64,000 nucleotides of DNA from contig JBBRPE010000002.1 of the NCBI GenBank assembly GCA_038228545.1, positions 22,426-86,425 of the forward strand, read 5' to 3'. This stretch comes from Minisyncoccia bacterium. GTDB lineage: Bacteria > Patescibacteriota > Minisyncoccia > Phycocordibacterales > Phycocordibacteraceae. Below, one piece after another: positions 661 to 40,059 of this stretch. Each line of letters begins with the position of its first letter. The stretch's first letter is position 1. The notes under the pieces were generated by a model. The model was given only the letters and a program-made list of their open reading frames with translations, was not told where the DNA came from and did no database searches. The position numbers and the translations under genes were made by a program.

Positions 661-1146
661 TCAATTGGTTCCCTCTCGTCGATGCTTTTCCTTTATTTTC
701 CAGTAAACCTCCTCCGTGCCAGCTTCTGAAGCACGTATTTCCTTATTAAAAAATTCAACCGGATATTTAGCTTGCACTTTCGTAAGTTTATCGTTTACCG
801 CCTCATCCATATCTATTCCAAGAATAGACGCCATATCAAAACAATAAATCATAACGTCAGAGAGTTCCTTCCGAATCTTTTCCATTTTCTTTTCATCCGT
901 ACGTACTTCCTGTGGATGAAGATTGTCCCACTGAAATATCTCAAGCAGTTCCGCTGCCTCTATCGTGATTGACTTAGCAATGTCTGATGGACGCAGCTCG
1001 TCCCACCCGCGCTTTTCAAGATGTTTTCGTATTCGGTCCTGAAACGCCTCCATAGCGTCAGTATATAGCACTAAATACAGTTTCAAGTAAGTAATAATTT
1101 CTGTCTTTGTCACTATTGACTTTTCATAAGTAGTTGCTATAAACAT
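661..1146 (-). CDS. MazG-like nucleotide pyrophosphohydrolase (all-alpha NTP-PPase)
   Basis: [11 protein letters not shown] motif, acidic metal-binding helices typical of MazG/dCTPase-like; adjacent to NUDIX gene. Confidence 0.7.
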
Positions 1147-1219
1147 ATTGGAGTTTCCTCGGACTTCCGGGGACCGAACCGCGCGGTTACGGCGGGCACC
1201 TTGAAAGGATTAGACAACT

Positions 1220-1750
1220 ATGGAGCCGATTTTTTGGATCGCTCTTATCGCCGGCCTTGTCTGCCTCTCCCTGTCACACATCTTTGATATTGGCGGGCAT
1301 GATGCTGACTTCGGTCACGATCACGGAGGAGACGGCGAAAGCGATGGGCTCATGACGAATCTCTTCACGCTTCGCAATTTCTTCATCTTCGCTCTGGGCT
1401 TCGGGGCTAGTGGCGCTATCGCCGCTCGTCTCGGAGCAAACGACCTGATCGCGAGCATTTGGGGCCTCGTCGCCGGCGTGCTTCTTGCACTTCTGGGTTC
1501 CGCTCTGTACCGCGCGATGCGCGGTCAGCAAGCGAGTTCTCTGACGCACTCGAATGCGCTCGTCGGCAAACGGGCCAAGGTGCTCACCGCTATCCCTTCG
1601 GGGGGACGCGGTGAAATAACCACCACGAATGCTCAAGGCACGACGGTGGCTCTACCTGCTCGTTCCTCTTCGGGGGAAATCGTGCAGAACACCATCGTCA
1701 ACATCACGGCCATGGATGGCGATACCGCCACCGTGGAACCCATCGTCTAA
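1220..1750 (+). CDS. NfeD-like membrane protein (TM helices + C-terminal OB-fold beta domain)
   Basis: 3 hydrophobic helices, His/Asp-rich loop, C-terminal G/V-rich OB-like segment; immediately upstream of flotillin gene (classic NfeD-SPFH operon). Confidence 0.65.
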   Translation: MEPIFWIALIAGLVCLSLSHIFDIGGHDADFGHDHGGDGESDGLMTNLFTLRNFFIFALGFGASGAIAARLGANDLIASIWGLVAGVLLALLGSALYRAMRGQQASSLTHSNALVGKRAKVLTAIPSGGRGEITTTNAQGTTVALPARSSSGEIVQNTIVNITAMDGDTATVEPIV

Positions 1751-1776
1751 ATAGACCGAGAAAGGGTCAAACTCAG

Positions 1777-3501
1777 ATGCAGATTCCAAGCTTTGTGATT
1801 CCGGTGGGGGTAGCAATTTTGTTCCTCGTGGCCGGTTTCTTCATGGTGATGGGAACGATTTCCCGTTACTACAAGAAGATCTCGCCCAACACCGTGGCCG
1901 TCATCACCGGCCGGAAGAACAAGATCAAGATGATGATCGACGGCGAGGAAAGGGTCGTCGAGAAGGGCTATCGCTTCGTCTCGGGCGGCGGCGCACTTAT
2001 CGTGCCGCTCCTCGAGAAGATGGAGGAGATGAGTCTCAACACCATCTCCACCACAGTGACCGTGACCGACGTTCCCTCGAAGGAGGGCGTGAAGGTGACG
2101 GTCGTGGCGATCGCCAACGTCAAGATCCAATCCGACGAGGCTTCCCTGCCGCTCGCCATTGAGCGATTCCTGGGGAGCTCCGAAGCTCAGATCCGCGGCG
2201 TCATCGACTCCACACTGGAGGGCGACCTCCGTGGCATCGTCGGCACCATGACGGTTGAAGGCCTGGTCAACGATCGGCAAACCTTCACCCAGCATGTACT
2301 CGAAGAAGCCGGCACCGACCTGGCCAAGATGGGCCTGTCGGTGGACGTGGTGAAAATCCAGTCCATCTCGGACGAACACGGCTATATCGATGCCCTGGGC
2401 AAGAAGCGCACCGCCGGCGTCGTCCGCGACGCCAGCATCGGTGAAGCCGAAGCTCAGCAGGAGACCGACGTCAAGACGGCGGCGGCCCGCCAAACTGGCG
2501 CCACTGCGCAAGCGGTCGCCGAGCAGGCAATCTCGACTGCCAACCGCGATCGTGACATGGCCATCGCCGACAACGAGGCGCAGGTCAAAGCCCAGCAGGC
2601 CCAGATCCCGATTGCCGCGGAAATTGCCGCGGCCAATCGGACCAAAGAGCTGAACGTCGCGACCGTTGATGCCAAAAAGGCGGAAATCACCGCCGGCATC
2701 GCGCTGCAGCAAGAAGAAGCCAAGCGTGTCGCGGCCGAACAGCAGGCCACCGTCGTGGTGCCGGCTGAAAAGGCCAAGGAAGCGCGTATCATCGCCGCCG
2801 ACGCCGGCCAAGCGGCGGCCGAACGTGAAGGTGAAGCCTTCCGCATCAAGGCCTCCAAGGAGGGCGAGGGCGAACGAGCGAAGCAGGAAGGTGTTGCGGC
2901 GGGCCGTAAGGCTCTCGCAAGCGCCGACCAAGCTGAGCGCGAGGCTCTGGCCGCAGGTAACAAGGCCCAGCTGCTCGCCACTGCGGCGGGTGTGCAGGCC
3001 GACCTGGAAGCCAAGGCTGCTGGTGAGATGGCGATGGCGAATGCCATTCGCGCTCGCCTGCTAGCCGAAGCCGAAGGCACCGAAAAGCGTGCCGAGGCGT
3101 TCGCCAAGCTCGACCAAGCCGGTCGCTTCCTGATGATTCTCGAGGCTCTGCCTCCGGTCATCGCGGCGTGCGGCGAAGCGGGTGAACGGATCGTGCGTCC
3201 GGCGGCGGAAGCCATCGGAACCGGTCTGGGCAACGTCAAAGAGATCCGCATCGTGGATCTCGGTGGTGGGAAAGACGGAGGCCAGTCCCTCGTCAGCCGG
3301 TTCGCTTCGACGCCGGTTCAGGCTTTCTTCGGGCTCTTTGAACAGGCGAAGGCGGCGGGTTTTGGTCCGCTCATCGACGAGCTCACGAAGCGCTTCGGCA
3401 TCAATCTCGACGAGATCATTCCGTCAGTTGCTCCGGCAGCTGCGGAACCTCCAATCGAAGGCGAAGCGAAGACGGTCACGCCAGCCGAAGCGAAGGCCTA
3501 A
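1777..3501 (+). CDS. flotillin-like SPFH/Band-7 protein (YqiK/FloA-like)
   Basis: N-terminal TM, SPFH core, long Ala/Glu-rich coiled-coil (EA-repeat) region; 574 aa. Confidence 0.85.
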   Translation: MQIPSFVIPVGVAILFLVAGFFMVMGTISRYYKKISPNTVAVITGRKNKIKMMIDGEERVVEKGYRFVSGGGALIVPLLEKMEEMSLNTISTTVTVTDVPSKEGVKVTVVAIANVKIQSDEASLPLAIERFLGSSEAQIRGVIDSTLEGDLRGIVGTMTVEGLVNDRQTFTQHVLEEAGTDLAKMGLSVDVVKIQSISDEHGYIDALGKKRTAGVVRDASIGEAEAQQETDVKTAAARQTGATAQAVAEQAISTANRDRDMAIADNEAQVKAQQAQIPIAAEIAAANRTKELNVATVDAKKAEITAGIALQQEEAKRVAAEQQATVVVPAEKAKEARIIAADAGQAAAEREGEAFRIKASKEGEGERAKQEGVAAGRKALASADQAEREALAAGNKAQLLATAAGVQADLEAKAAGEMAMANAIRARLLAEAEGTEKRAEAFAKLDQAGRFLMILEALPPVIAACGEAGERIVRPAAEAIGTGLGNVKEIRIVDLGGGKDGGQSLVSRFASTPVQAFFGLFEQAKAAGFGPLIDELTKRFGINLDEIIPSVAPAAAEPPIEGEAKTVTPAEAKA

Positions 3502-27804: not shown

Positions 27805-27840
27805 AAAACACCCCGCTTCTGCGGGGTGTTTTCATTTATT
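27805..27840. terminator. bidirectional terminator AAAACACCCCGC-TTCT-GCGGGGTGTTTT between hup and rarA
   Basis: Perfect 12-bp stem flanked by A- and T-tracts. Confidence 0.6.
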
Positions 27841-29005
27841 CCTTCGTTTTCTTAGTCGAACGCTTTGGAAAGTAGGAATGCTTCTGTATTTTCTCGGGAA
27901 GATAGCTTTCTTCGTCGTATTTCTTATAGCCTTTGCCGTAGCCCAAGTCTTTCATGAGTTTTGTGGGTGCGTTCCGTATATTCATAGGCACCTTGAGGTT
28001 TCCAAAAGCTTTCACGTCCTCTTGAGACTTACCGAGAGCATCCGTAACTGAACGGTCCTTTGCGGCGTTCGCAAGATACGCAACGCCATGTGCGAGATTG
28101 AGTGAGCATTCAGGATAGCCAATCGTTTCGCATGCGCGAAAGACCGCATTGGCGACAACGAGCGCAGTGGGCTGAGCGAGGCCCACATCTTCGGAAGCAA
28201 AGATAACCATACGTCGAGCAATGAAAAGTGGGTCTTCCCCAGCTTCTATCATACGAGCGAGGTAATACATGGCCGCATCCGGCTGCGAAGCACGCATGCT
28301 TTTTATAAACGCACTTATGATGTCGTAGTGCTCCTCTCCTTTTTTGTCGTAGCGCAGATGCGGCGACTCAAGCGATTTATTTAAATTCGTGACGGTAATC
28401 TTCTTTCCATACAGTGCGATAGCGCCCTCAAGCATGCCAAGTGCCTTACGTGCGTCGCCATTGGCGTAGCCCATAAGCCACTCAAACGCCCCGTCACCGA
28501 GCGTAACCTCAGCACGCGCTACGATGGCTCGTAGTGCTTCTTCCGAGAGTGGTTCAAGTACGAATACACGACTGCGAGAAAGGAGCGCAGGAATAACTTC
28601 AAACGATGGGTTCTCCGTCGTTGCTCCAATGAGCGTGAGTTCGCCGCTTTCTACATACGGCAACAGAAAATCTTGCTGTGCTTTATTAAAACGGTGTATC
28701 TCGTCGAGAAATAGGAGTTTCGGTTTAAATTCGAGCGTTTTGTTCTTTGAATCACCAAGTATTTTGCGTATATCGTCCTTACTTGCAGAGACTGCAGAGA
28801 GTTCAAAAAGTTCCGCATCTAACGCGCGAGCATAAATGCGAGCAATGGTCGTCTTTCCCGTCCCGGGCGGGCCCCAAAGAATAAACGAGAAAAGATGTTT
28901 CTTCTCTATGGCCACACGTAGCGGCTTCCCCTTCCCCACCAGATGCTCCTGTCCGACCACGTCGTCGATATTCGTAGGTCGTATGCGGTTAGCGAGAGGC
29001 TCCAT
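27836..29005 (-). CDS. rarA: replication-associated recombination protein A (AAA+ ATPase RarA/MgsA)
   Basis: Walker [10 protein letters not shown], Walker B LFLDEIHRF, MgsA C-terminal domains. Confidence 0.9.
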   Translation of the reverse strand: MEPLANRIRPTNIDDVVGQEHLVGKGKPLRVAIEKKHLFSFILWGPPGTGKTTIARIYARALDAELFELSAVSASKDDIRKILGDSKNKTLEFKPKLLFLDEIHRFNKAQQDFLLPYVESGELTLIGATTENPSFEVIPALLSRSRVFVLEPLSEEALRAIVARAEVTLGDGAFEWLMGYANGDARKALGMLEGAIALYGKKITVTNLNKSLESPHLRYDKKGEEHYDIISAFIKSMRASQPDAAMYYLARMIEAGEDPLFIARRMVIFASEDVGLAQPTALVVANAVFRACETIGYPECSLNLAHGVAYLANAAKDRSVTDALGKSQEDVKAFGNLKVPMNIRNAPTKLMKDLGYGKGYKKYDEESYLPEKIQKHSYFPKRSTKKTKE

Positions 29006-29037
29006 ACAAAAATTCTACGCTTCTCTACATAAAGTGA

Positions 29038-29060
29038 AAGCGCGGTCAGAGACCGCGCTT
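29038..29060 (-). terminator. hairpin AAGCGCGGTC-AGA-GACCGCGCTT at 3' end of small-gene array (upstream of rarA)
   Basis: Perfect 10-bp stem; moderately U-rich downstream on minus strand. Confidence 0.4.
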
Positions 29061-29279
29061 ATTGAAGTACAACCCTCCGCGTTCACCTAGAGGACGGATC
29101 CCGAGGAAACGCAGCAACGGTCCGAAACGACCGGTAAGTAGCAGGTCGCGCTCGAAGCGCCGGCGACGCTCGCGCATGAAGTCGGCGAGTGCCGTCATGC
29201 CATCGAGACGGGCTGCCAGTTCCATTTCATGGGCGACCTTGATGCGGAAGCGGGCGCGCTTGATTTCATTATTCATCAT
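29046..29279 (-). CDS. small ORF A (77 aa, Arg-rich), hypothetical; preceded by hairpin motif copy 1 and AAGGGA SD
   Basis: ORF + RBS + conserved leader motif. Confidence 0.45.
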   Translation of the reverse strand: MMNNEIKRARFRIKVAHEMELAARLDGMTALADFMRERRRRFERDLLLTGRFGPLLRFLGIRPLGERGGLYFNKRGL

Positions 29280-29284
29280 GTGAC

Positions 29285-29476
29285 CTATTCCCTTTCAGCC
29301 AAGGAACCATTTCCCGGGCTGAATAGAGAGAGCAAATCGTACTTGGTGTCGTACTTGCCCTGTTTGAGTTGTGCACGAGTCACCACTCGGTTTCGTTTCT
29401 TGGTCTTATCCGCGACGACCCGCGGACGCAGGTGCGGGCTCCGTAGAGCCTTCGCAATCGGATTACGTCGTTTCAT
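29285..29476 (-). CDS. small ORF B (63 aa, very basic: MKRRNPIAKALRSPHLRPR...), hypothetical nucleic-acid-binding-like; 3' end encodes hairpin motif copy 1
   Basis: AGGGAGAA SD 5 nt before ATG; overlaps ORF C by 14 nt (coupled). Confidence 0.4.
   Translation of the reverse strand: MKRRNPIAKALRSPHLRPRVVADKTKKRNRVVTRAQLKQGKYDTKYDLLSLFSPGNGSLAERE
29295..29322 (-). promoter_or_regulatory. leader hairpin motif copy 1 (minus-strand RNA: UUCAGCC-CGGGAAAUGGUUCCUU-GGCUGAA)
   Basis: Outer stem TCAGCC/GGCTGA + inner palindrome GGAA-ATGG-TTCC, ~15 nt before SD of ORF A. Confidence 0.55.
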
Positions 29477-29789
29477 TAGGTTCTCCCTGTTTGTGTCGTG
29501 CCTGGATGAAGTTCAAGAAGTCTTTCAGCTCGACTCGAGCCAGGTTTGCCTCGTCACGAATGTCTTTGGGGACATTCCGGAACCAGGTCGCGCGACGGTC
29601 GCCGACCCGCATGGCGACTGCCTTGAGCCTCGCCTCCATCTCCTGGAACTTCACCGAATCCGTGAGCGGGCTGTGCGAATCCTTGGCGTAGATGGCAACG
29701 AGCACGAGGTCCCCACTGATCTTCGCAGCACGCGCGAGGTCAAAGACCACCGCAACCGTCGTGACTTTATTTCCGTAGAAATCGTTCAT
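29463..29789 (-). CDS. small ORF C (108 aa), hypothetical
   Basis: AGGAGA SD; hairpin motif copy 2 just upstream. Confidence 0.5.
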   Translation of the reverse strand: MNDFYGNKVTTVAVVFDLARAAKISGDLVLVAIYAKDSHSPLTDSVKFQEMEARLKAVAMRVGDRRATWFRNVPKDIRDEANLARVELKDFLNFIQARHKQGEPNETT

Positions 29790-29809
29790 TACATTCTCCT
29801 AAACCTCTG

Positions 29810-29836
29810 TCAGCCAACGAACCATTCGTGGGCTGA
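29810..29836 (-). promoter_or_regulatory. leader hairpin motif copy 2 (TCAGCC-CACGAATGGTTCGTT-GGCTGA)
   Basis: Same outer stem; inner palindrome changed to CGAA-TGG-TTCG (compensatory). Confidence 0.55.
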
Positions 29837-29909
29837 ATAAAGTGGAGGACCGAAATCCTCCGAGTTTACAGATTCTGTTGCCAGGCTCTGCGAGCCCCGT
29901 CCGCCATCC

Positions 29910-30269
29910 CTAGGCCGCAGCGATGAATCGCGTTACCGCGATGACGTGACCATCCTTATCTCGAATGGATCCGTCCATCGGCCCCGTTCCCGGAGCGATG
30001 ACATCGGGGCGTCCCGACACGTGTCCGAGCACAAGGCTCGAAACAATGAAGAACGTATCCGGGATGGGCTCCGGAAGGTTCTCCACCACCCCCCAGACGG
30101 GCGACGCGTGAATCGGGATGCCGCCGTGTTCGGCACAGCCAGTGGCGATTTGCTCGCCAGGAGTGCTTGAGACTCGGACCACCGTCCCGCAGGGCGGGAC
30201 GGTGACATCTTCATTATCCAGCTTGCGGAACGTGATCGGATGCGGAGTGAGATTGCGCCAGTAGCTCAT
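29910..30269 (-). CDS. small ORF D (119 aa), hypothetical
   Basis: Start trimmed to MSYWRN (AAGGGG SD); hairpin motif copy 3 just upstream. Confidence 0.45.
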   Translation of the reverse strand: MSYWRNLTPHPITFRKLDNEDVTVPPCGTVVRVSSTPGEQIATGCAEHGGIPIHASPVWGVVENLPEPIPDTFFIVSSLVLGHVSGRPDVIAPGTGPMDGSIRDKDGHVIAVTRFIAAA

Positions 30270-30290
30270 ATTCAGTACCCCTTGTGCTTT

Positions 30291-30319
30291 TTGAGTCCAC
30301 GAACCATTCATGGACTCAA
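30291..30319 (-). promoter_or_regulatory. leader hairpin motif copy 3 (TTGAGTCCA-TGAATGGTTCG-TGGACTCAA)
   Basis: Outer stem fully replaced (GAGTCC/GGACTC) but still base-pairs; loop GAATGGTTCG conserved. Confidence 0.55.
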
Positions 30320-30604
30320 TGAAGCGGTGGACTTGAGAGGTCCACCGGAGGTGCCGGCCTTTTTGAGGCCGGCCTCCTGGAACTTTTCAGCCCAGAAGTT
30401 TTGCGCGTCACGTTCGCGACGCTCTTTGGCCCACTGCTCGCGCAGAGCCGGCGAGGGGTAAACCTTGGCGGTCACTCCTTCCGGCGCCTGCTCGCAGACG
30501 CGGGTACCGCACGGCTTGTGAGTCGTGAAGTGGTTGCTCCCGACCTGGAGCATCCATTGCGCGCCTGCGCGACGGCAGACGGTGCAGGTAATGATGTCGG
30601 TCAT
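30308..30604 (-). CDS. small ORF E (98 aa), Cys-rich zinc-ribbon-like (CTVCRR...CGTRVC)
   Basis: Start trimmed to MTDIITCTVC (GAAGGAAA SD); hairpin motif copy 4 upstream; 3' end contains two additional strong hairpins. Confidence 0.45.
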   Translation of the reverse strand: MTDIITCTVCRRAGAQWMLQVGSNHFTTHKPCGTRVCEQAPEGVTAKVYPSPALREQWAKERRERDAQNFWAEKFQEAGLKKAGTSGGPLKSTASLSP

Positions 30605-30621
30605 GAGAGTTTCCTTCTCTA

Positions 30622-30649
30622 TCAGCCAAGGAACCATTTCCCGGGCTGA
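30622..30649 (-). promoter_or_regulatory. leader hairpin motif copy 4 (identical core to copy 1)
   Basis: TTTATTCAGCCCGGGAAATGGTTCCTTGGCTGA, 20 nt before SD of ORF E. Confidence 0.55.
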
Positions 30650-30779
30650 ATAAAGGAGCTGACGTATTTGTCAGCTCTTGGTGCGAATTTGTGGCAATCG
30701 CGGCCTCCCTGCTTTTTCGCTCTAAGGAAATTGTGAGCAACCTGTGGAATGACCCCGCCACAGGACAAGGGGTGAATGG

Positions 30780-30947
30780 CTACACGCGCCAGCCGGGCTT
30801 ACCGCCGGAGGGCGTGGAGATCAGGCGGGCTTCAAACCCGCACTGACCCCCATCAACCTCCCGGCGCAAGCGGCCGGCGGGCGTGTAGCCCTTGCTCTGG
30901 AGGAGCAAGGTTGCGGCCTTCACCAGCTCGCGTTGACGGTCGGTCAT
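30780..30947 (-). CDS. small ORF F (55 aa, MTDRQRELVKAATLLL...), hypothetical
   Basis: GGGAGA SD 6 nt upstream; degenerate AGCCC-N-GGGCT hairpin upstream. Confidence 0.35.
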   Translation of the reverse strand: MTDRQRELVKAATLLLQSKGYTPAGRLRREVDGGQCGFEARLISTPSGGKPGWRV

Positions 30948-31346
30948 GACGTTTCTCCCAAAGCCCGGGATGGGCTCTTTTTTGATTCTTAAAGAACTGT
31001 CTGGAAACGTACGAGGTGCGCACCCTCGCTTACCCGTTTCCTTGTATGCACTCGTCCTGGTTTTACCGAACTTCGTCAAAACTTGACGTAAGTACCAGAT
31101 ACGATGCACATGGCGCGACGGACACCACCCCTCTTCCCCATCGGGGACTGGCCCGAGAGCAGGCTTCATTTTTTGGGAATTGCTTTCGCAATCCCTCTCC
31201 CAAGCGGAAACGGGCCGCAGGTACGGCATTAAGTGCGCCGGATGAATCCTGCTGAGTCCCCTTCCCGTTCAGGGAGGAATCACGAATTAACTTTTCACTA
31301 TGGAAATCTTTCAATGACCCTTGCCGTCAATGACGACTGACAAAAG

Positions 31347-31375
31347 CTGTATACACCCGTTCTCTTTTTTTGTCA
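31347..31375 (-). promoter_or_regulatory. candidate sigma-70 promoter for small-gene array (minus strand: TTGACA-17 nt-TATACA)
   Basis: Consensus -35, 17-nt spacer, 5/6 -10; points toward ORFs F-A. Confidence 0.4.
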
Positions 31376-31382
31376 AGACATT

Positions 31383-31468
31383 CTGACTTATTTAGTCAAT
31401 TTATAACAAAAATGCCTATAAAATAGGCTATTTTACTAGTATTAAACGACATTATCAGCTGACTAAAT
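31383..31468. promoter_or_regulatory. operator-like repeat set between divergent promoters: TGACT-TATTT-AGTCA inverted repeat (31383-31397), palindrome GCCTATAAAATAGGC (31413-31427), TGACTAAAT (31460-31468); further CTGAC(T) copies at 31336 and 31503
   Basis: Repeats read directly in ~70% AT spacer. Confidence 0.4.
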
Positions 31469-31489
31469 TTGAATTCGTGACAATAAACA

Positions 31490-31518
31490 TTGACAAATCT
31501 TTCTGACTTTGCTACGAT
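31490..31518 (+). promoter_or_regulatory. candidate sigma-70 promoter (TTGACA-17 nt-TACGAT) driving noncoding transcript
   Basis: Perfect -35, 17-nt spacer, 4/6 -10. Confidence 0.45.
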
Positions 31519-31524
31519 ATGACG

Positions 31525-31778
31525 GTCTGGCTAGCCCCTTTGGGACTGCCTAATTCATTGGAGGAATCCATGAGAATGCGGCTTCATTGAGGTCGTCAGT
31601 CGGACGACCGCCCGGGTGTAACCGGGCAAAAAAGTAGGAAAGGTCATTCATGACCAGAATTTTCTCTCCAGGCGACGGCGAGTAGCCGACCGAAGTGCCT
31701 GTCTTGCGACGTAAGATGACGTCGCGACGAAGCAACCAGTACCGGGGCCGGGGACACAACGTCTCCGGCCCTTTTTTA
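31525..31778 (+). ncRNA. candidate ~255-nt noncoding or leader RNA bounded by promoter and intrinsic terminator; contains two SD-preceded micro-ORFs (MRMRLH, MTRIFSPGDGE) and several internal hairpins; antisense partner region of TrmB-like gene 3' end
   Basis: Promoter 31490-31518, terminator 31745-31778, no plausible protein gene between. Confidence 0.35.
31745..31778 (+). terminator. intrinsic terminator GGGCCGGGGAC-ACAAC-GTCTCCGGCCC + TTTTTT
   Basis: 11-bp GC-rich stem + U6. Confidence 0.65.
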
Positions 31779-32537
31779 CGCCTCTTTTTTCTTAGGCTCT
31801 TCGGAGTTGAGCCACAAGAAGTCAAAAATACTTCGCATATTCTCGGCTATCTCCTCACTTTCTATAATGACGCCGAATGGTTCATTACTGTATGAACGAA
31901 TTACCGTTTTGTTATCGAAAATCGACAAATCGATGCTTAGAGCGAGCACATCCGGCGCGATGAATCGTCGTTCGGTGAGAGCATCGAACTCAACTCGCTC
32001 GAAATGAGGTTTATGGAGTTGGATACCTTTTGAATACACACCCTTACCCCTCCGTCGCTCCGAGTATTCATCGAGCTCTTTTTCTGAAAAAAGATTTGCG
32101 AGATGCTCGTATGAAAAGATGGTGTAAATTTTCTTAGACTTGGTCATGAGGGCCTCCTCCCTTGTCGCTGACACACCCTCCTTTCCCGGAAAAAAACGAA
32201 CAACGGGACGTTCTCCTGCCCCTTCAAACTGAAGGAGTAGCGCTGGAAGCAAAGTTTGCAACAAACTCTCATTCGTTCGTAAATTTTCTTTTTGCTTTTC
32301 GAGTACTCGCTTAAGAGCCTCCGGGGACTCCGGCGCGAAATACGTTTTCTTCCCCTCCTCATACGTACTCATCAGTCCTTTTTCCATAAGGGACTTTATC
32401 TGTACGTACGTCGTGGGACGTACTATCTTCGCGTGTTTAGCGAGCTGGTCGGCGGTCGCGCGACCGATTTCAATTGATGCAAGATACACTCGGGCCTCTT
32501 TTTCAGATAGACCAAAATCCTGAAGTTCTTTTAGCAT
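31776..32537 (-). CDS. TrmB-family transcriptional regulator (N-terminal wHTH + C-terminal effector-like domain)
   Basis: MLKELQDFGLSEKEARVYLASIEIGRATADQLAKHAKIVRPTTYVQIKSLMEKGL matches TrmB HTH pattern; start trimmed to MLKELQ. Confidence 0.7.
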   Translation of the reverse strand: MLKELQDFGLSEKEARVYLASIEIGRATADQLAKHAKIVRPTTYVQIKSLMEKGLMSTYEEGKKTYFAPESPEALKRVLEKQKENLRTNESLLQTLLPALLLQFEGAGERPVVRFFPGKEGVSATREEALMTKSKKIYTIFSYEHLANLFSEKELDEYSERRRGKGVYSKGIQLHKPHFERVEFDALTERRFIAPDVLALSIDLSIFDNKTVIRSYSNEPFGVIIESEEIAENMRSIFDFLWLNSEEPKKKEA

Positions 32538-32557
32538 GTACACAGAATAGCATTCGG

Positions 32558-32710
32558 TGGTGCGGGATAGGAGAAGTGTCCAGCGAAGACGCAGGCACGC
32601 ATCGGTCACAGATATTTTCCTGCTGGAAAATTCCGCGACCCCGCCTCAGCGCCGACGCGCTTCCGGCTTCCGATTCTCCTATCCCAGCCATTACACACGC
32701 TTCGCGTGTT
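32558..32710. repeat. tRNA-linked conserved element, copy 1 (downstream of tRNA-Gly-UCC on minus strand): partial direct copy of the tRNA 3' end (32558-32574), ~70-nt conserved core (32595-32666), inverted copy of the tRNA T-loop/3' end (32667-32685), hairpin ACACGC-TTC-GCGTGT (32694-32708)
   Basis: Compared by eye with copies at 34905-35250 and 35942-36154; core about 90% identical to copy 3. Confidence 0.55.
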
Positions 32711-32715
32711 ACATG

Positions 32716-32786
32716 TGCGGGATAGGAGAATCGGACTCCTGCTCTCAGTTTGGAAAACTGATGTTCTACCATTAAACTAATCCCGC
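32716..32786 (-). tRNA. tRNA-Gly (anticodon UCC)
   Basis: Manual fold: GCGGGAT/ATCCCGC acceptor, D-arm GTTT-AATGGTA-GAAC, anticodon loop TTTCCAA, T-arm AGGAG-TCCGATT-CTCCT, discriminator A; no encoded CCA. Confidence 0.8.
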
Positions 32787-32854
32787 TGTAGGCCAGAGAA
32801 TACCATATCTTGGCCCTCTCTGTCTTTTTTCGAGCTTCACGGTAGCATTGCCGT

Positions 32855-34072
32855 ATGCGCGAGCACATTGAACATCTCCTGGCCGCCCTCGGTGCCGTCG
32901 GCTTCGCACTTTTCGTTTCCTATTTCAATACGGGCCCCGTACACGTCGCTCCCCTTGAGCGTACGACGCCAACACTAGTGCCTATTTCGCCTGGTGCAGC
33001 AACATACGCGGTGAACACATTCCCATCACTCGCTCTTTCCACATCAACGATTGACCAGATGTTTCCGTCTGGTACTTCTGCACCGAGCGAAAAGAAAACC
33101 AAAACGCCAGCACCGGTAGCTACTCCGGCACCTGTCCCTGTAAAACCTGCCGCTCCGGTGGTTAGCGTAAAACCTAAGCCTGTTCCTAGTGTTGCCACAC
33201 CTACGGTCGCTACGACGACCACTCCCCCAGTAACCTCACCAGTCCTATCCGGACTCGGTAGTGCAGTGGTCAATATTCTATGTACGTCTCGAACAGGAAC
33301 GACACAAGGTCTGTCTGGCTCAGGTACAATCATCGACTCACGCGGCGTAATACTCACTGTTGCTCACGTCGCGCAAGCAGAGCTCCTTGAGCAGGCGTAC
33401 GGACCGGAAACGATGTCGTGTGTTGTTCGTACGGGAAGTCCGGCACACACCGCATACAAAGCAAAAGTTATGTACCTTTCAGAAAATTGGCTAAGAAATA
33501 ATTCAACGACACTGATTAGCTCACACCCGACAGGAAACGGTTCAGATGATTTTGCCCTTCTGGCGATTACTGCATCGGCAACAGGTAGGCCACTCCCTTC
33601 TTCCTTTCCTTCAGTCCCACTTGCAAACATCGTGCCAAACGCCGGTAACACCGTTCAAATTGCTGGCTACGGCGCTGAGCACCTTACCAATACACAAGTG
33701 TTTACATCGCTCACACAAACTCTTATCCAGGGCGCTGTGTCCAAAGTACACAGCTTCCGCGGCGGGACGGCAGACGCACTCTCAGTTGATGGCGGGGACT
33801 CGGCACAGGAAGGTGCGTCCGGAGGCGCAGTAGCAACTTCAAACGGCGCGCTCACCGGCGTAATTACCGGAAGCGAAATTACGAGTACCAGCAGTACCCC
33901 GCTCGTATGGGCTATAACTGTTGACTACATTCGCCGTACGTTCACCGATGCTACGGGTAAAGATTTTGATTCATTCTACCAAGGAAGCATTCCTGACCTC
34001 GTGAATAGTTACGCACCAACCGCTCAGACGCTGGGCACATTCCTCGGTAAAGCTATTGGGCTACAGAGTTAA
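32855..34072 (+). CDS. membrane-anchored trypsin-like serine protease with Pro/Thr-rich linker
   Basis: N-terminal TM; His (TVAHV), Asp (DFALLAI), Ser (GASGGAV) triad contexts. Confidence 0.65.
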   Translation: MREHIEHLLAALGAVGFALFVSYFNTGPVHVAPLERTTPTLVPISPGAATYAVNTFPSLALSTSTIDQMFPSGTSAPSEKKTKTPAPVATPAPVPVKPAAPVVSVKPKPVPSVATPTVATTTTPPVTSPVLSGLGSAVVNILCTSRTGTTQGLSGSGTIIDSRGVILTVAHVAQAELLEQAYGPETMSCVVRTGSPAHTAYKAKVMYLSENWLRNNSTTLISSHPTGNGSDDFALLAITASATGRPLPSSFPSVPLANIVPNAGNTVQIAGYGAEHLTNTQVFTSLTQTLIQGAVSKVHSFRGGTADALSVDGGDSAQEGASGGAVATSNGALTGVITGSEITSTSSTPLVWAITVDYIRRTFTDATGKDFDSFYQGSIPDLVNSYAPTAQTLGTFLGKAIGLQS

Positions 34073-34904: not shown

Positions 34905-35250
34905 GGCTCCTATTTTTTGCAAATCATTGTCGGGGTGCGCGCCATTGTTTCGTTGCGAGTGTAACGAGTTAGGAAACAACTAGTGCCTTAGGGGTGGAGA
35001 TTGAACTCCGTCATCCGGATGTCTCCCAGACATCCGATTACATGCTGATTCTTTTCTGCAAATCATTGTCGGGGTGCGGAGAAGCTTCGCGCATTGGTCA
35101 CGCATCACTAAGTCGTTTCGCTCCTAAGTAGCGCGACCCCGTCTCGCCGTTTTCGGGAGGACCCGAAAACATGCTCCGGCTTTCAATTCTCCGGAGCAGG
35201 CCAGAGCAGTCTGGCCTGCTCACCACTCCTTCACTCACTTCGTTCATTCA
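34905..35250. repeat. tRNA-Pro trailer repeats: two direct copies of TGCAAATCATTGTCGGGGTGCG (34913-34940, 35058-35085; antisense of tRNA-Pro acceptor 3' strand + trailer), a partial tRNA-Pro 3'-half copy (34990-35022), and a family-type core (35095-35250) with hairpin TTTTCGGG-AGGA-CCCGAAAA and inverted T-arm copy TTCAATTCTCCGGAG
   Basis: Direct sequence comparison with tRNA-Pro gene at 35252-35322 and with Gly-linked elements. Confidence 0.5.
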
Positions 35251-35941: not shown

Positions 35942-36154
35942 AGGTGCGGATGGGGAGAATGGAGGGGAGAAGTGTCCTGAGATTATTCAGGCACGCATCG
36001 GTCACAGATATTTCCCTGCTGGGAAATTCCGCGACCCCGCCTCGGCGCCGTCGCGCTTGCGGCTTCCGATTATCCACGCACGGCGTCCCACGCCGTGCTC
36101 TATCCGCCCGTCGACAATGCAAAAACGCCCCAGAGGGGCGTTTTTGCTCGACGG
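35942..36154. repeat. tRNA-linked conserved element, copy 3 (downstream of tRNA-Gly-GCC): partial direct tRNA 3'-end copy GGTGCGGATGGGGAGAA (35942-35958), conserved core (35990-36070), inverted partial CTCTATCCGCC (36097-36107), long hairpin CGTCGACAATGCAAAAACGCCCC-AGA-GGGGCGTTTTTGCTCGACG (36108-36152)
   Basis: Aligned by eye to copy 1; stem TTTTCC/GGAAAA of copy 1 becomes TTTCCC/GGGAAA here (compensatory). Confidence 0.55.
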
Positions 36155-39141: not shown

Positions 39142-40059
39142 CTATTGCTGACGCGAGTGGAAACGTTTATGTACTTCACGTAGATGCGCGTCGGTAACGT
39201 GCGTGTAAATCTGGGTGGTATTGATAGAGGCATGGCCCAGGAGAGCCTGAACACTGCGTATATCAGCACCATTTGAAAGGAGGTCGGTAGCGAATACGTG
39301 ACGAAGCGTATGAGGGCTTACCTTATTGGTTATTCCGGCTTGTGCAGCGTACTTCTTAATGTGACGCTGGATATCACGTGGTGTGATGCGATGCGGTTTG
39401 GTATCGCGGCCATCTACAAAAAGTGCTTCCTCCATGTCCTTACGGGCCTTCAAATAGGCCGTAACAGAGTCCTTGGCAGCAGGCGAGAGAAATACGACCC
39501 GTACTTTCTCGCCTTTTCCGCGTACCGAAAGGTCGTCGCGAGTGAGATCGATGTCTGAATTGAGTGCACAGAGTTCCGCCACACGAAGCCCTGTTGAGAA
39601 AAGGAGCTCGAGAATGGCGGTATCACGCAGTGCTACTTGCTGTTTGCGCGGCTCATCACTTTTCTTAGCTACGTCTTCCGGTGCTTTCATGAGACGTTCG
39701 AGCTCCGCGGAAGTGATGATATCAATTTGGCGCTCCGGAAGCTTGGCGAGCTCAATTCGTTCGGGATTCAGGCCCTCTACACCGCGTTTACGTAAATACT
39801 TAAGGAAAGCGCGTAGGGCAATGAGGTAGTAATTCTGTGTGCGGCGCTTCATGGTCGCGTTTCCCGTACCTGGCTGGCGGTTAAGCCAAAGGCGGAATTC
39901 ACGGATTTTGTCCTCTGAGATGTCTCCAACGCCCTGAATCTTCATTTGTTCAAAGAAAACCGATAGGTAATGGTCGTAATTTTCGACTGTTTTTACCGCA
40001 CGACCACGCTCAATTTCCGTATATTCGAGGAATTCACGCTTCATCTGTACCGCGTCCAT
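39142..40059 (-). CDS. tyrosine site-specific recombinase, XerC/XerD-like
   Basis: N-terminal SAM-like core-binding domain; catalytic R..HxxR..Y context (TLRHVFATDLL...GHASINTTQIYTHV). Confidence 0.8.
   Translation of the reverse strand: MDAVQMKREFLEYTEIERGRAVKTVENYDHYLSVFFEQMKIQGVGDISEDKIREFRLWLNRQPGTGNATMKRRTQNYYLIALRAFLKYLRKRGVEGLNPERIELAKLPERQIDIITSAELERLMKAPEDVAKKSDEPRKQQVALRDTAILELLFSTGLRVAELCALNSDIDLTRDDLSVRGKGEKVRVVFLSPAAKDSVTAYLKARKDMEEALFVDGRDTKPHRITPRDIQRHIKKYAAQAGITNKVSPHTLRHVFATDLLSNGADIRSVQALLGHASINTTQIYTHVTDAHLREVHKRFHSRQQ

Follow-up and report, generated by a model that had tools for sequence, protein, structure and literature searches.

A window of DNA from Patescibacteria (Paceibacteria-like) was analysed, the term window denoting throughout the whole stretch of 64 kb, and the locus in question is the segment of about 3.7 kb that extends from rarA to tRNA-Gly(UCC). 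This segment is probably a composite accessory islet, set in a hypervariable gap between two core genes and made up of three layers. The layer beside the tRNA would be a mini-module of 139 bp, a miniature or remnant of tRNA-targeting integrative elements. A second layer would consist of a TrmB-like gene of native composition, an AT-rich divergent promoter region and a candidate structured small RNA. The third would be a GC-rich array of 1.9 kb, apparently a recent import, with six small genes (A to F), of which gene D is predicted to destroy cyclic-oligoadenylate defence signals. Units consisting of a terminator-like hairpin (H2) and a second hairpin (H1) would separate the cistrons of this array, H1 being typical of operons beside TrmB-like genes in this lineage. 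Since the array is not bracketed by attachment (att) sites, its most likely route of arrival would be turnover of the hotspot through recombination in the flanks or illegitimate recombination, and not a recognisable site-specific event. An islet is in itself an ordinary kind of thing; the noteworthy parts of this one are the Crn4b-like gene, the module formed by H1 and the TrmB-like gene, and the tRNA-trailer modules. An earlier note on this DNA had listed rarA, tRNA-Gly(UCC), the TrmB-like gene, small open reading frames (ORFs) and a small-RNA candidate, and this inventory was essentially correct as judged from Pfam, ARAGORN, Rfam, ORF and fold evidence. Coordinates are collected in Table 1.

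A lineage-specific insertion between rarA and tRNA-Gly(UCC)

The locus was compared with 80 rarA-centred loci of relatives (L001 to L080). The closest relatives of RarA were encoded by metagenome-assembled genomes (MAGs) labelled Parcubacteria, Paceibacterota or Saccharibacteria at 75-80% identity, the range also seen for the rarA orthologues of L001 to L008; the contig index contained no exact match to RarA. The order of the flanks was kept in the closest relatives (o41321, o40723, Xer, o38326, o36266, the tRNA cluster, the trypsin-like gene, tRNA-Gly(UCC), rarA and o25267). A synteny check suggested in the earlier note, namely whether rarA and tRNA-Gly(UCC) are adjacent elsewhere, gave a positive answer, with gaps of 17, 29 and 116 bp in L008, L007 and L006, respectively. 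The same gap measured 474 bp in L005, about 1.5 kb in L003, 3.7 kb in the window, 6.3 kb in L002 and 9 kb in L004, and its contents were mutually unrelated across relatives while the flanks were conserved. A peptidoglycan-binding protein was encoded in the gaps of L001, L002 and L003; that of L002 also contained a gene for a Schlafen/AlbA_2-domain protein, methyltransferase genes and TrmB-like genes, and that of L004 contained a phosphatase gene, an O-methyltransferase gene, a DHODH-like gene, an ornithine-type decarboxylase gene and several TrmB-like genes. No integrase was detected in the larger gaps of the relatives, including those of L002 and L004, which hold ordinary metabolic and regulatory genes. 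Homologues of genes A to F were absent from all 80 loci, and only gene D had any, on unrelated metagenome contigs. The 3.7-kb segment is a true insertion, specific to this lineage, and its site is hypervariable.

The segment begins at the 3′ end of tRNA-Gly(UCC) (position 32715). Read from the tRNA along the minus strand, it comprises a non-coding stretch of 139 bp, the TrmB-like gene and then genes F, E, D, C, B and A, which are six small ORFs on the minus strand (29046-30947) transcribed toward rarA. The far end is marked by a terminator-like hairpin overlapping the stop codon of gene A. Because an equivalent terminator precedes rarA in L004 and L005, where it is followed by GCGTAnAnTTTTT..ATGG 5′ of rarA, the end of the islet can be placed within about 10 nt of the gene A stop. 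Pfam and other family scans detected no recombinase domain in any ORF of 29040-32790, and a search of 28800-33000 against Rfam, at gathering thresholds and also with E values of up to 10, returned the tRNA and chance microRNA-type matches only. The earlier note had raised the possibility that recombination was supplied in trans by the Xer-like recombinase at 39142-40059. This suggestion was not borne out: L006 and L007 are without the islet yet keep the Xer-like gene in equivalent synteny (75-76% identity), and it is a housekeeping core gene without visible tie to the islet.

The impression, recorded in the same note, that the segment is more GC-rich than its surroundings was correct for genes A to F (29046-30947; GC content of 0.587 compared with a window mean of 0.51) but did not extend to the TrmB-like gene (0.46) or the promoter region at 31301-31530 (0.34). 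The GC content at third codon positions (GC3) was 0.59-0.84 for A to F as opposed to 0.46-0.51 for rarA, the TrmB-like gene, Xer, the trypsin-like gene and others; the TrmB-like gene, with a GC3 of 0.48, was core-gene-like. As GC and GC3 are raised in the array, unlike in the TrmB part, A to F look like a recent import from a higher-GC donor and the TrmB part does not. The array was the most GC-rich 1.9 kb of the window except for an Ala-rich flotillin gene. The latter is a 574-residue SPFH/flotillin-like ORF (1777-3501, plus strand; recognised by eye from its translation) with a long Ala/Glu/Lys-rich region. This ORF accounts for the GC content of 0.60-0.64 and the strong AT skew at 1500-3500, which is neither island nor ribosomal RNA, and the GC-rich stretch at 1000-3500 was rejected as a second island for the same reason.

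Array genes, hairpins and the TrmB-like gene

Gene D was identified, by its profile, predicted fold and motif, as a Crn4b-like ring nuclease. When 46 homologues were combined in a profile, it matched the PDB entries for Crn4b (9r7b, 1.4e-14), Crn4a (9sma, 6.2e-14) and Crn4 (9qs9, 5.5e-12), and the PADLOC family Unk_01 was matched at 6.3e-12. The AlphaFold model had a predicted local distance difference test (pLDDT) score of 90.8, and only Crn4 chains were matched with Foldseek (template modelling [TM] scores of 0.71-0.74, E values of 2e-08 to 7e-07). Residues T8 and H10 of an NLTPH motif were invariant and R103 was present in at least 90% of the 46 homologues; these residues align with the NLTPH and RD positions of Crn4b, and the catalytic residues of Crn4 are T/H/R (Chi et al. 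2025, PMC12830947). The predicted activity of the gene D product is degradation of cyclic oligoadenylates. Crn4b proteins are found in phages and plasmids and are likely anti-CRISPR proteins (Chi et al. 2025, PMC12830947). Homologues of gene D were located in cultured phages and on contigs consisting mostly of small genes without family matches. No cas-like families were detected in Pfam and PADLOC scans of the genes neighbouring D, these scans covering neighbouring genes only.

Among the remaining genes, gene A matched only itself among 1.84 billion representative proteins and had no Pfam, PHROG, NCBIfam or PADLOC match, while genes C and E matched only themselves among 5.8 billion clusters. 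No family match was obtained for gene F in Pfam, other family and PADLOC scans. Gene B exhibited a weak, sub-threshold match to DUF7230 (8e-06; 26.3 bits against a cut-off of 27), and its last 13 codons traverse the fourth H1 copy. As one anti-signalling enzyme, the gene D product, sits among small ORFans, genes A to F may represent an anti-defence or ‘moron’-type gene set of a mobile element.

Hairpins of two types punctuate the array. H2 is a terminator-like, GC-rich hairpin, and H1 follows it directly, the U-rich tail of H2 serving as the 5′ strand of H1. The combined unit is present 5′ of genes E, D and C, and H1 alone is present 5′ of gene A. A covariance model (R1) found exactly four copies of H1 in the window, all inside the array and with scores of 55-61 bits. 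The stem sequence of copy 2 departs from those of the other copies through compensatory changes, and the outermost copies (copy 4 and 30615-30655) are 93% identical direct repeats separated by 1327 bp. A further 10 copies were found outside the window, two in L004, two in L034 and one each in L002, L003, L005, L063, L095 and L097. Across 12 copies from eight loci, 88% of cells were paired, compared with 29-46% when the partner was slid, and two-sided changes were observed at 9 of the 15 pairs. G-U pairs occurred on the sense strand only and every copy was sense-oriented, both of which argue that H1 acts as RNA. The position of H1 between cistrons, together with this covariation, suggests that its most likely role is in RNA processing, stability or read-through control.

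For each of the 10 copies outside the window, a divergent TrmB-like gene starts 400-1130 nt away, whereas the DNA examined contained only about one such gene per 83 kb. Since H1 elsewhere is always near a TrmB-like gene, the TrmB-like gene and H1 operon of the window would belong to a recurrent type of module. One instance occupies this very hotspot. There, in L004 (936-1800), two small genes form a GC-rich (0.55-0.57) array that has two H2 plus H1 units, abuts the 3′ end of tRNA-Gly(UCC), points toward the tRNA and runs divergently from a TrmB-like gene. Its orientation is thus opposite to that of the window array, and its genes are unrelated to A to F. In three other relatives (L002, 11751-11799; L003, 2931-2980; L005, 11646-11692), an H1-bearing, TrmB-linked operon is located just 3′ of rarA and convergent with it. 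The other flank of rarA is, therefore, also variable, as this module is missing there in the window, L001 and L006 to L008.

H1 had no match in Rfam, and searches of viral contigs gave either nothing or chance matches that the covariance model rejects. A first metagenome scan for the exact H1 type returned nothing. A second scan returned four loci, of which L095 (27.8 bits) and L097 (19.7 bits) were accepted as H1 and L096 and L098 gave weak matches (R1 scores of 14.5-15.2 bits, E values of 0.1-0.15); a loose regular expression returned mostly noise. Several known types of element were also weighed by eye as explanations of H1 and rejected. A REP sequence or a miniature inverted-repeat transposable element did not fit four copies in 64 kb that are all in the array and have covarying stems; the spacing and hexamers were unfit for an N4-type hairpin promoter or a sigma-70 promoter; CTCTTTATT resembled boxA only loosely, so that a lambda nut-like boxA/boxB site was discarded; a kink-turn was dropped because one strand lacks the GA; and, by eye, the core motifs of an integron attC site were missing and the hairpin was too short.

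The TrmB-like gene was only ~30% identical to the TrmB-like paralogues of relatives. The repeats of the adjacent promoter region were D6 (TTGWCAAnnnnTTCTGACTT, present twice) and I9. The leader that follows the predicted array promoter had a fold z-score of -4.1 and no homologue in any locus examined; both promoter and leader would serve the array. On the opposite strand, the small-RNA candidate had a promoter (TTGACA-17-TACGAT with TG; 10 of 12 matches; 31490-31518), a strong terminator at 31744-31772 (a 12-bp stem followed by a T-run) and a fold z-score of -5.4. Rfam gave no match to it, and the loci examined contained no homologue. This candidate converges on the 3′ end of the TrmB-like gene, and CTTCATTGAGG, a sequence in its 5′ part, is similar to the 5′ flank of H1.

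Table 1. Features of the rarA to tRNA-Gly(UCC) locus (positions in the window)
Feature	Positions	Strand	Evidence or property
rarA (mgsA), core gene flanking the islet	27836..29005	-	Pfam MgsA_C 1.7e-51, AAA_assoc_2, AAA
Intrinsic-terminator-like hairpin, 5′ of rarA promoter, overlapping gene A stop	29038..29060	-	read from sequence
Gene A, 77 aa, ORFan	29046..29279	-	GC3 0.67
Gene B, 63 aa, basic; overlaps gene C end	29285..29476	-	GC3 0.59
H1 copy 4, 5′ of gene A	29285..29333	-	covariance model R1 55.7 bits; fold z-score -3.3
Gene C, 108 aa, ORFan	29463..29789	-	GC3 0.72
H2 (29844-29861) + H1 copy 3 (29800-29847), 5′ of gene C	29800..29861	-	terminator-like hairpin; R1
Gene D, 119 aa, Crn4b-like ring nuclease (predicted)	29910..30269	-	profile, fold, motif
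H2 (30326-30346) + H1 copy 2 (30282-30329), 5′ of gene D	30282..30346	-	R1
Gene E, 98 aa, Cys-rich ORFan	30308..30604	-	GC3 0.74
H2 (30656-30677) + H1 copy 1 (30612-30660), 5′ of gene E	30612..30677	-	R1
Gene F, 55 aa, first of array	30780..30947	-	ORF + ribosome-binding site, GC3 0.84
Predicted array promoter (31458-31430) + ~480-nt leader	30948..31458	-	CTGATA-17-TAAAAT
AT-rich divergent promoter region, operator-like repeats	31301..31530	.	promoter-like sites on both strands, GC 0.34
Candidate structured small RNA, ~250 nt	31524..31778	+	promoter, terminator, fold
TrmB-like winged-helix regulator	31776..32537	-	PF01978 8.1e-13, residues 5-68
tRNA-trailer mini-module: hairpin, inverted copy 32669-32689, structured core 32590-32680, direct copy 32560-32575	32560..32714	-
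tRNA-Gly(UCC)	32715..32786	-	ARAGORN; Rfam tRNA model 68.9 bits

Modules and integrative elements at tRNA genes

The 3′ end of tRNA-Gly(UCC) is repeated exactly, over 16 bp and in direct orientation, 139 bp from the tRNA (32560-32575 = 32715-32730), where ~0.4 chance matches were expected even with three mismatches allowed. The earlier note had seen a partial copy and had regarded it as an att-like scar bounding the segment on its tRNA side. The copy is indeed present, exact and significant, but it encloses only 139 bp; it belongs to a separate 139-bp module and is not the boundary of the islet. All of the extra copies of the tRNA end are confined to the 155 bp next to the tRNA. Within 28900-32550 no additional copy of at least 10 nt was present, the only matches being two 9-mers, a chance level, and no distal att site was detected when the rarA side was searched.

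The 139-bp stretch has a defined architecture. Its inverted copy (32669-32689) corresponds to the T-loop, T-stem and acceptor 3′ strand of the tRNA, and its core scored 108.5 bits with a second covariance model (R2). The module was 88% identical over 115 nt to 35961-36075, which lies 3′ of tRNA-Gly(GCC) in a module region (35944-36152) whose direct copy (35944-35959) matches the 3′ end of its own tRNA at 15 of 16 positions. A more diverged module was found at tRNA-Pro (region 34913-35250), with a core at 35082-35193 and the direct copy TTCTCCGCACCCCGAC at 35068-35083. This tRNA is further accompanied by another partial tRNA copy and by a 27-nt repeat (34913-34939 and 35052-35078) that duplicates the tRNA end and its downstream flank. 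The long hairpin of the core differs between the window and L006 by 5-6 two-sided changes that leave its pairing intact. Modules were present at three tRNAs of the window and eight more tRNAs in relatives. When all the sequences examined were considered, 10 of 104 tRNAs had an exact copy (at least 15 nt) of their own 3′ end no more than 350 nt downstream, against a background longest match of 5-8 nt. All 10 were in Patescibacteria loci and most also had an inverted copy of 10-17 nt. The direct copies begin in or just past the T-loop and end 1-2 bases beyond the discriminator, and in several cases a terminator follows each of the two 3′ ends. The core, like H1, was absent from Rfam, and viral contigs yielded either no cores or chance matches rejected by the covariance model. 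On the strand opposite the module, a minihelix resembling a tRNA and ending in CCA was considered and discarded, as it fits tRNA-Gly(UCC) only and fails for tRNA-Pro.

Two further arrangements were observed at tRNAs of relatives. Several partial copies of the 5′ part of tRNA-Ala lie upstream of this tRNA in L016 (1600-2080), one of which precedes a core matching R2 (35.9 bits) and then an anticodon-stem-like sequence; this looks like a mirror image of the 3′ trailer modules. In L002 (3700-3850), a tRNA-like sequence (T-arm and acceptor end) with an apparent insertion near the anticodon region is located directly 3′ of tRNA-Gly(UCC) on the opposite strand and was not called by ARAGORN.

A full-length element was found at a tRNA of one relative. 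A Candidatus Campbellbacteria MAG (L046; BTUR01000003.1, 1-7731) contains a 6.7-kb element 3′ of tRNA-Gln, whose large serine recombinase gene is on the strand opposite the tRNA and overlaps the tRNA 3′ end. The element also encodes a G2P/RepSA-like rolling-circle Rep, a SMODS cyclase accompanied by a membrane protein (resembling a cyclic-oligonucleotide-based antiphage signalling system) and a cyclodipeptide synthase. At its far end are a core matching R2 (23.3 bits), an inverted copy of the tRNA-Gln 3′ end and 12-nt partial direct copies of it, and a further direct copy of 16 nt is present ~0.65 kb beyond the element, past an S51-peptidase gene. Large serine recombinases directly 3′ of tRNAs and on the opposite strand were observed in L005, L061 and L080 as well as in L046. 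In L005 (2295-8600), a 548-residue large serine recombinase overlaps the 3′ end of tRNA-Pro, in the orthologous tRNA cluster, with DUF3892, Bro-N and Band_7 genes next in line. The arrangement has the appearance of an integrated element at a tRNA whose orthologue in the window keeps only a remnant module. The recombinases beside tRNAs in relatives are thus of the serine and not the tyrosine type, and a tblastn search of the window with that of L046 gave no match. These elements support the view that tRNA genes of this lineage are real integration targets, and the trailer modules may be miniatures or remnants of such tRNA-targeting integrative elements. The tRNA-specific inverted copy and the core might form a folded single-strand attachment site or origin, or might give rise to a tRNA-like RNA. 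A practical consequence is that a short copy of a tRNA end beside a tRNA need not mark the edge of a neighbouring island.

Origin of the islet and comparison with known systems

The earlier note had taken the whole 3.7 kb to be one degenerate island, integrated site-specifically at the 3′ end of tRNA-Gly(UCC), that had since lost its integrase and distal att site. Parts of that proposal stood: the segment is an insertion that adjoins a tRNA 3′ end, its presence varies among relatives, A to F are foreign in composition, gene D is of a mobile-element type, and tRNAs of this lineage are used by serine-recombinase elements. The att-like repeats in series 3′ of a single tRNA in L046 add a precedent for tandem accretion. 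We nevertheless consider a single island of this kind unlikely. No recombinase gene is present in 29040-32790, and the searched interval of 28900-32550 holds no second tRNA-end copy of at least 10 nt, although a recent att site should remain visible given that A to F have not drifted toward host composition. Furthermore, the direct repeat encloses 139 bp with the islet outside it, and the gaps of L002 and L004 contain ordinary metabolic and regulatory genes but no integrase. One att-bounded island that lost its integrase is, therefore, disfavoured because the repeat belongs to another element, no distal att is found, the TrmB-like gene is native-like and the Xer-like gene is housekeeping.

Two other explanations were weighed. 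An integron-like cassette array, i.e., an attC cluster without an integrase in which H1 or H2 plus H1 are folded recombination sites and cassettes were added singly, would account for small, co-oriented and mostly ORFan genes that have between them a repeat of conserved structure and varying sequence, a likeness to attC sites and to clusters of attC sites lacking integrons (CALIN). The two-gene array of L004, with the same hairpins in the same hotspot but in the opposite orientation, and the near-identity of the outermost H1 copies as direct repeats would also fit. So would a Logan contig (L081; SRR19962015, 1356 nt) that corresponds to window positions 29296-30651, exactly the interval between the outermost H1 copies, and ends on both sides in near-identical H1 copies. 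This contig was rejected as evidence of a circular cassette, since a k=31 assembly is interrupted like this at any repeat of 30 nt, and such ends are an ordinary outcome of de Bruijn assembly. Known attC sites are ~57-141 nt long with RYYYAAC ... GTTRRRY cores and are longer than H1. H1 is ~40 nt, and no RYYYAAC or GTTRRRY cores were seen in H1 or H2 by eye (no pattern scan was run). There is no intI, the sole tyrosine recombinase being the Xer-type core gene 6 kb away, and the occurrence of single H1 copies, outside the window, within operons beside TrmB genes fits a regulatory RNA better. With cores, length and integrase context all failing to match, we regard an integron-like origin as very improbable. 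Little credence is also given to a chimera in MAG assembly, by which no real cell would have the GC-rich block between TrmB and rarA. The abrupt composition step, the finding of A, C and E nowhere else and the failure of the sole independent contig to reach the outer junctions would be expected of such an artefact. However, H1, present four times in the block, was otherwise encountered solely in Patescibacteria loci, one of them being this hotspot in L004; the gene A stop overlaps a terminator that is also 5′ of rarA in L004 and L005; and the gene order is that of one continuous operon from a plausible promoter.

The composite islet is, on balance, the reading that we prefer, but several observations weigh against it or against parts of it. 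The source of the window is a MAG, and the only independent contig, L081, spans just 29296-30651, ends in H1 and leaves the outer junctions uncrossed. The anti-defence role depends on one gene of the six. The alignment of H1 (A3) from which covariation was assessed had been fitted to the model, and the TrmB-like gene of the window is on the same strand as the array, 1.9-3.2 kb from H1, whereas the other 10 cases are divergent. Finally, the nearest relative has only ~80% RarA identity, so that the insertion is not precisely datable or polarisable, and the TrmB part could possibly reflect loss in other lineages.

A wider and distinctly tentative proposal, which we hold to be rather doubtful, is that two undescribed, structure-defined elements, H1 and the tRNA miniature module, shape accessory DNA in Paceibacteria. 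According to this proposal, H1 would be a new cis-acting RNA hairpin that always follows a terminator in variable, TrmB-governed operons, and the window would present an extreme four-fold case in which H1 strings together imported genes of anti-defence type, the one for the Crn4b ring nuclease among them. About one in 10 tRNA genes would carry the miniature, a non-coding derivative of elements with a serine recombinase and a rolling-circle Rep, whose folded stem would re-create the acceptor and T-stem helix of the cognate tRNA; the miniature itself may be a folded single-strand attachment site, a replication origin or a tRNA-like small RNA. The genomes of Patescibacteria are tiny, the gain and control of accessory genes in them are poorly understood, and this locus provides a concrete hotspot of fast turnover. 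An imported ring nuclease, from a family only recently characterised, would switch off cyclic-oligoadenylate immune signalling in a mobile-element setting, and both H1 and the tRNA-trailer module could be used to mark accessory operons and the remnants of integrated elements in uncultured lineages.

Among known systems, gene D resembles Crn4b (PMC12830947; 9r7b, 9sma, 9qs9) in profile, predicted fold, T/H/R residues and size (119 aa) but is only 24-29% identical to the solved proteins, has no adjacent type III CRISPR locus in the window and sits in a Patescibacteria chromosome among ORFans. The trailer modules share with elements of the L046 type the succession of inverted copy, core and direct copy, which is full-length in L046. 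The window differs in having only a 139-bp non-coding miniature, present at three tRNAs with a tRNA-specific inverted copy, and no serine recombinase 3′ of a tRNA. The extent of the repeat, from T-loop to discriminator, is also like the att sites within tRNA genes of pSAM2-like RepSA/G2P serine-recombinase elements.

For small novel genes with stem-loops, phage morons and the promoter/stem-loop regulatory cassettes of the T4 type provide a comparison. The array is like these in its small novel genes, its own stem-loop punctuation and a composition unlike that of its surroundings; it differs in lacking a recognisable promoter for each gene and in that H1 was found not in viral contigs but in chromosomal operons beside TrmB-like genes. 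The locus conforms to the general concept of hotspots of horizontal transfer and genomic islets beside tRNA genes, as a tRNA-adjacent gap between core genes with differing accessory content in each genome and a partly foreign composition. It departs from this concept in that the islet has neither an integrase nor a flanking att pair, in that the host is a Patescibacteria with an ultra-small genome, and in that the content is organised by a lineage-specific hairpin motif.

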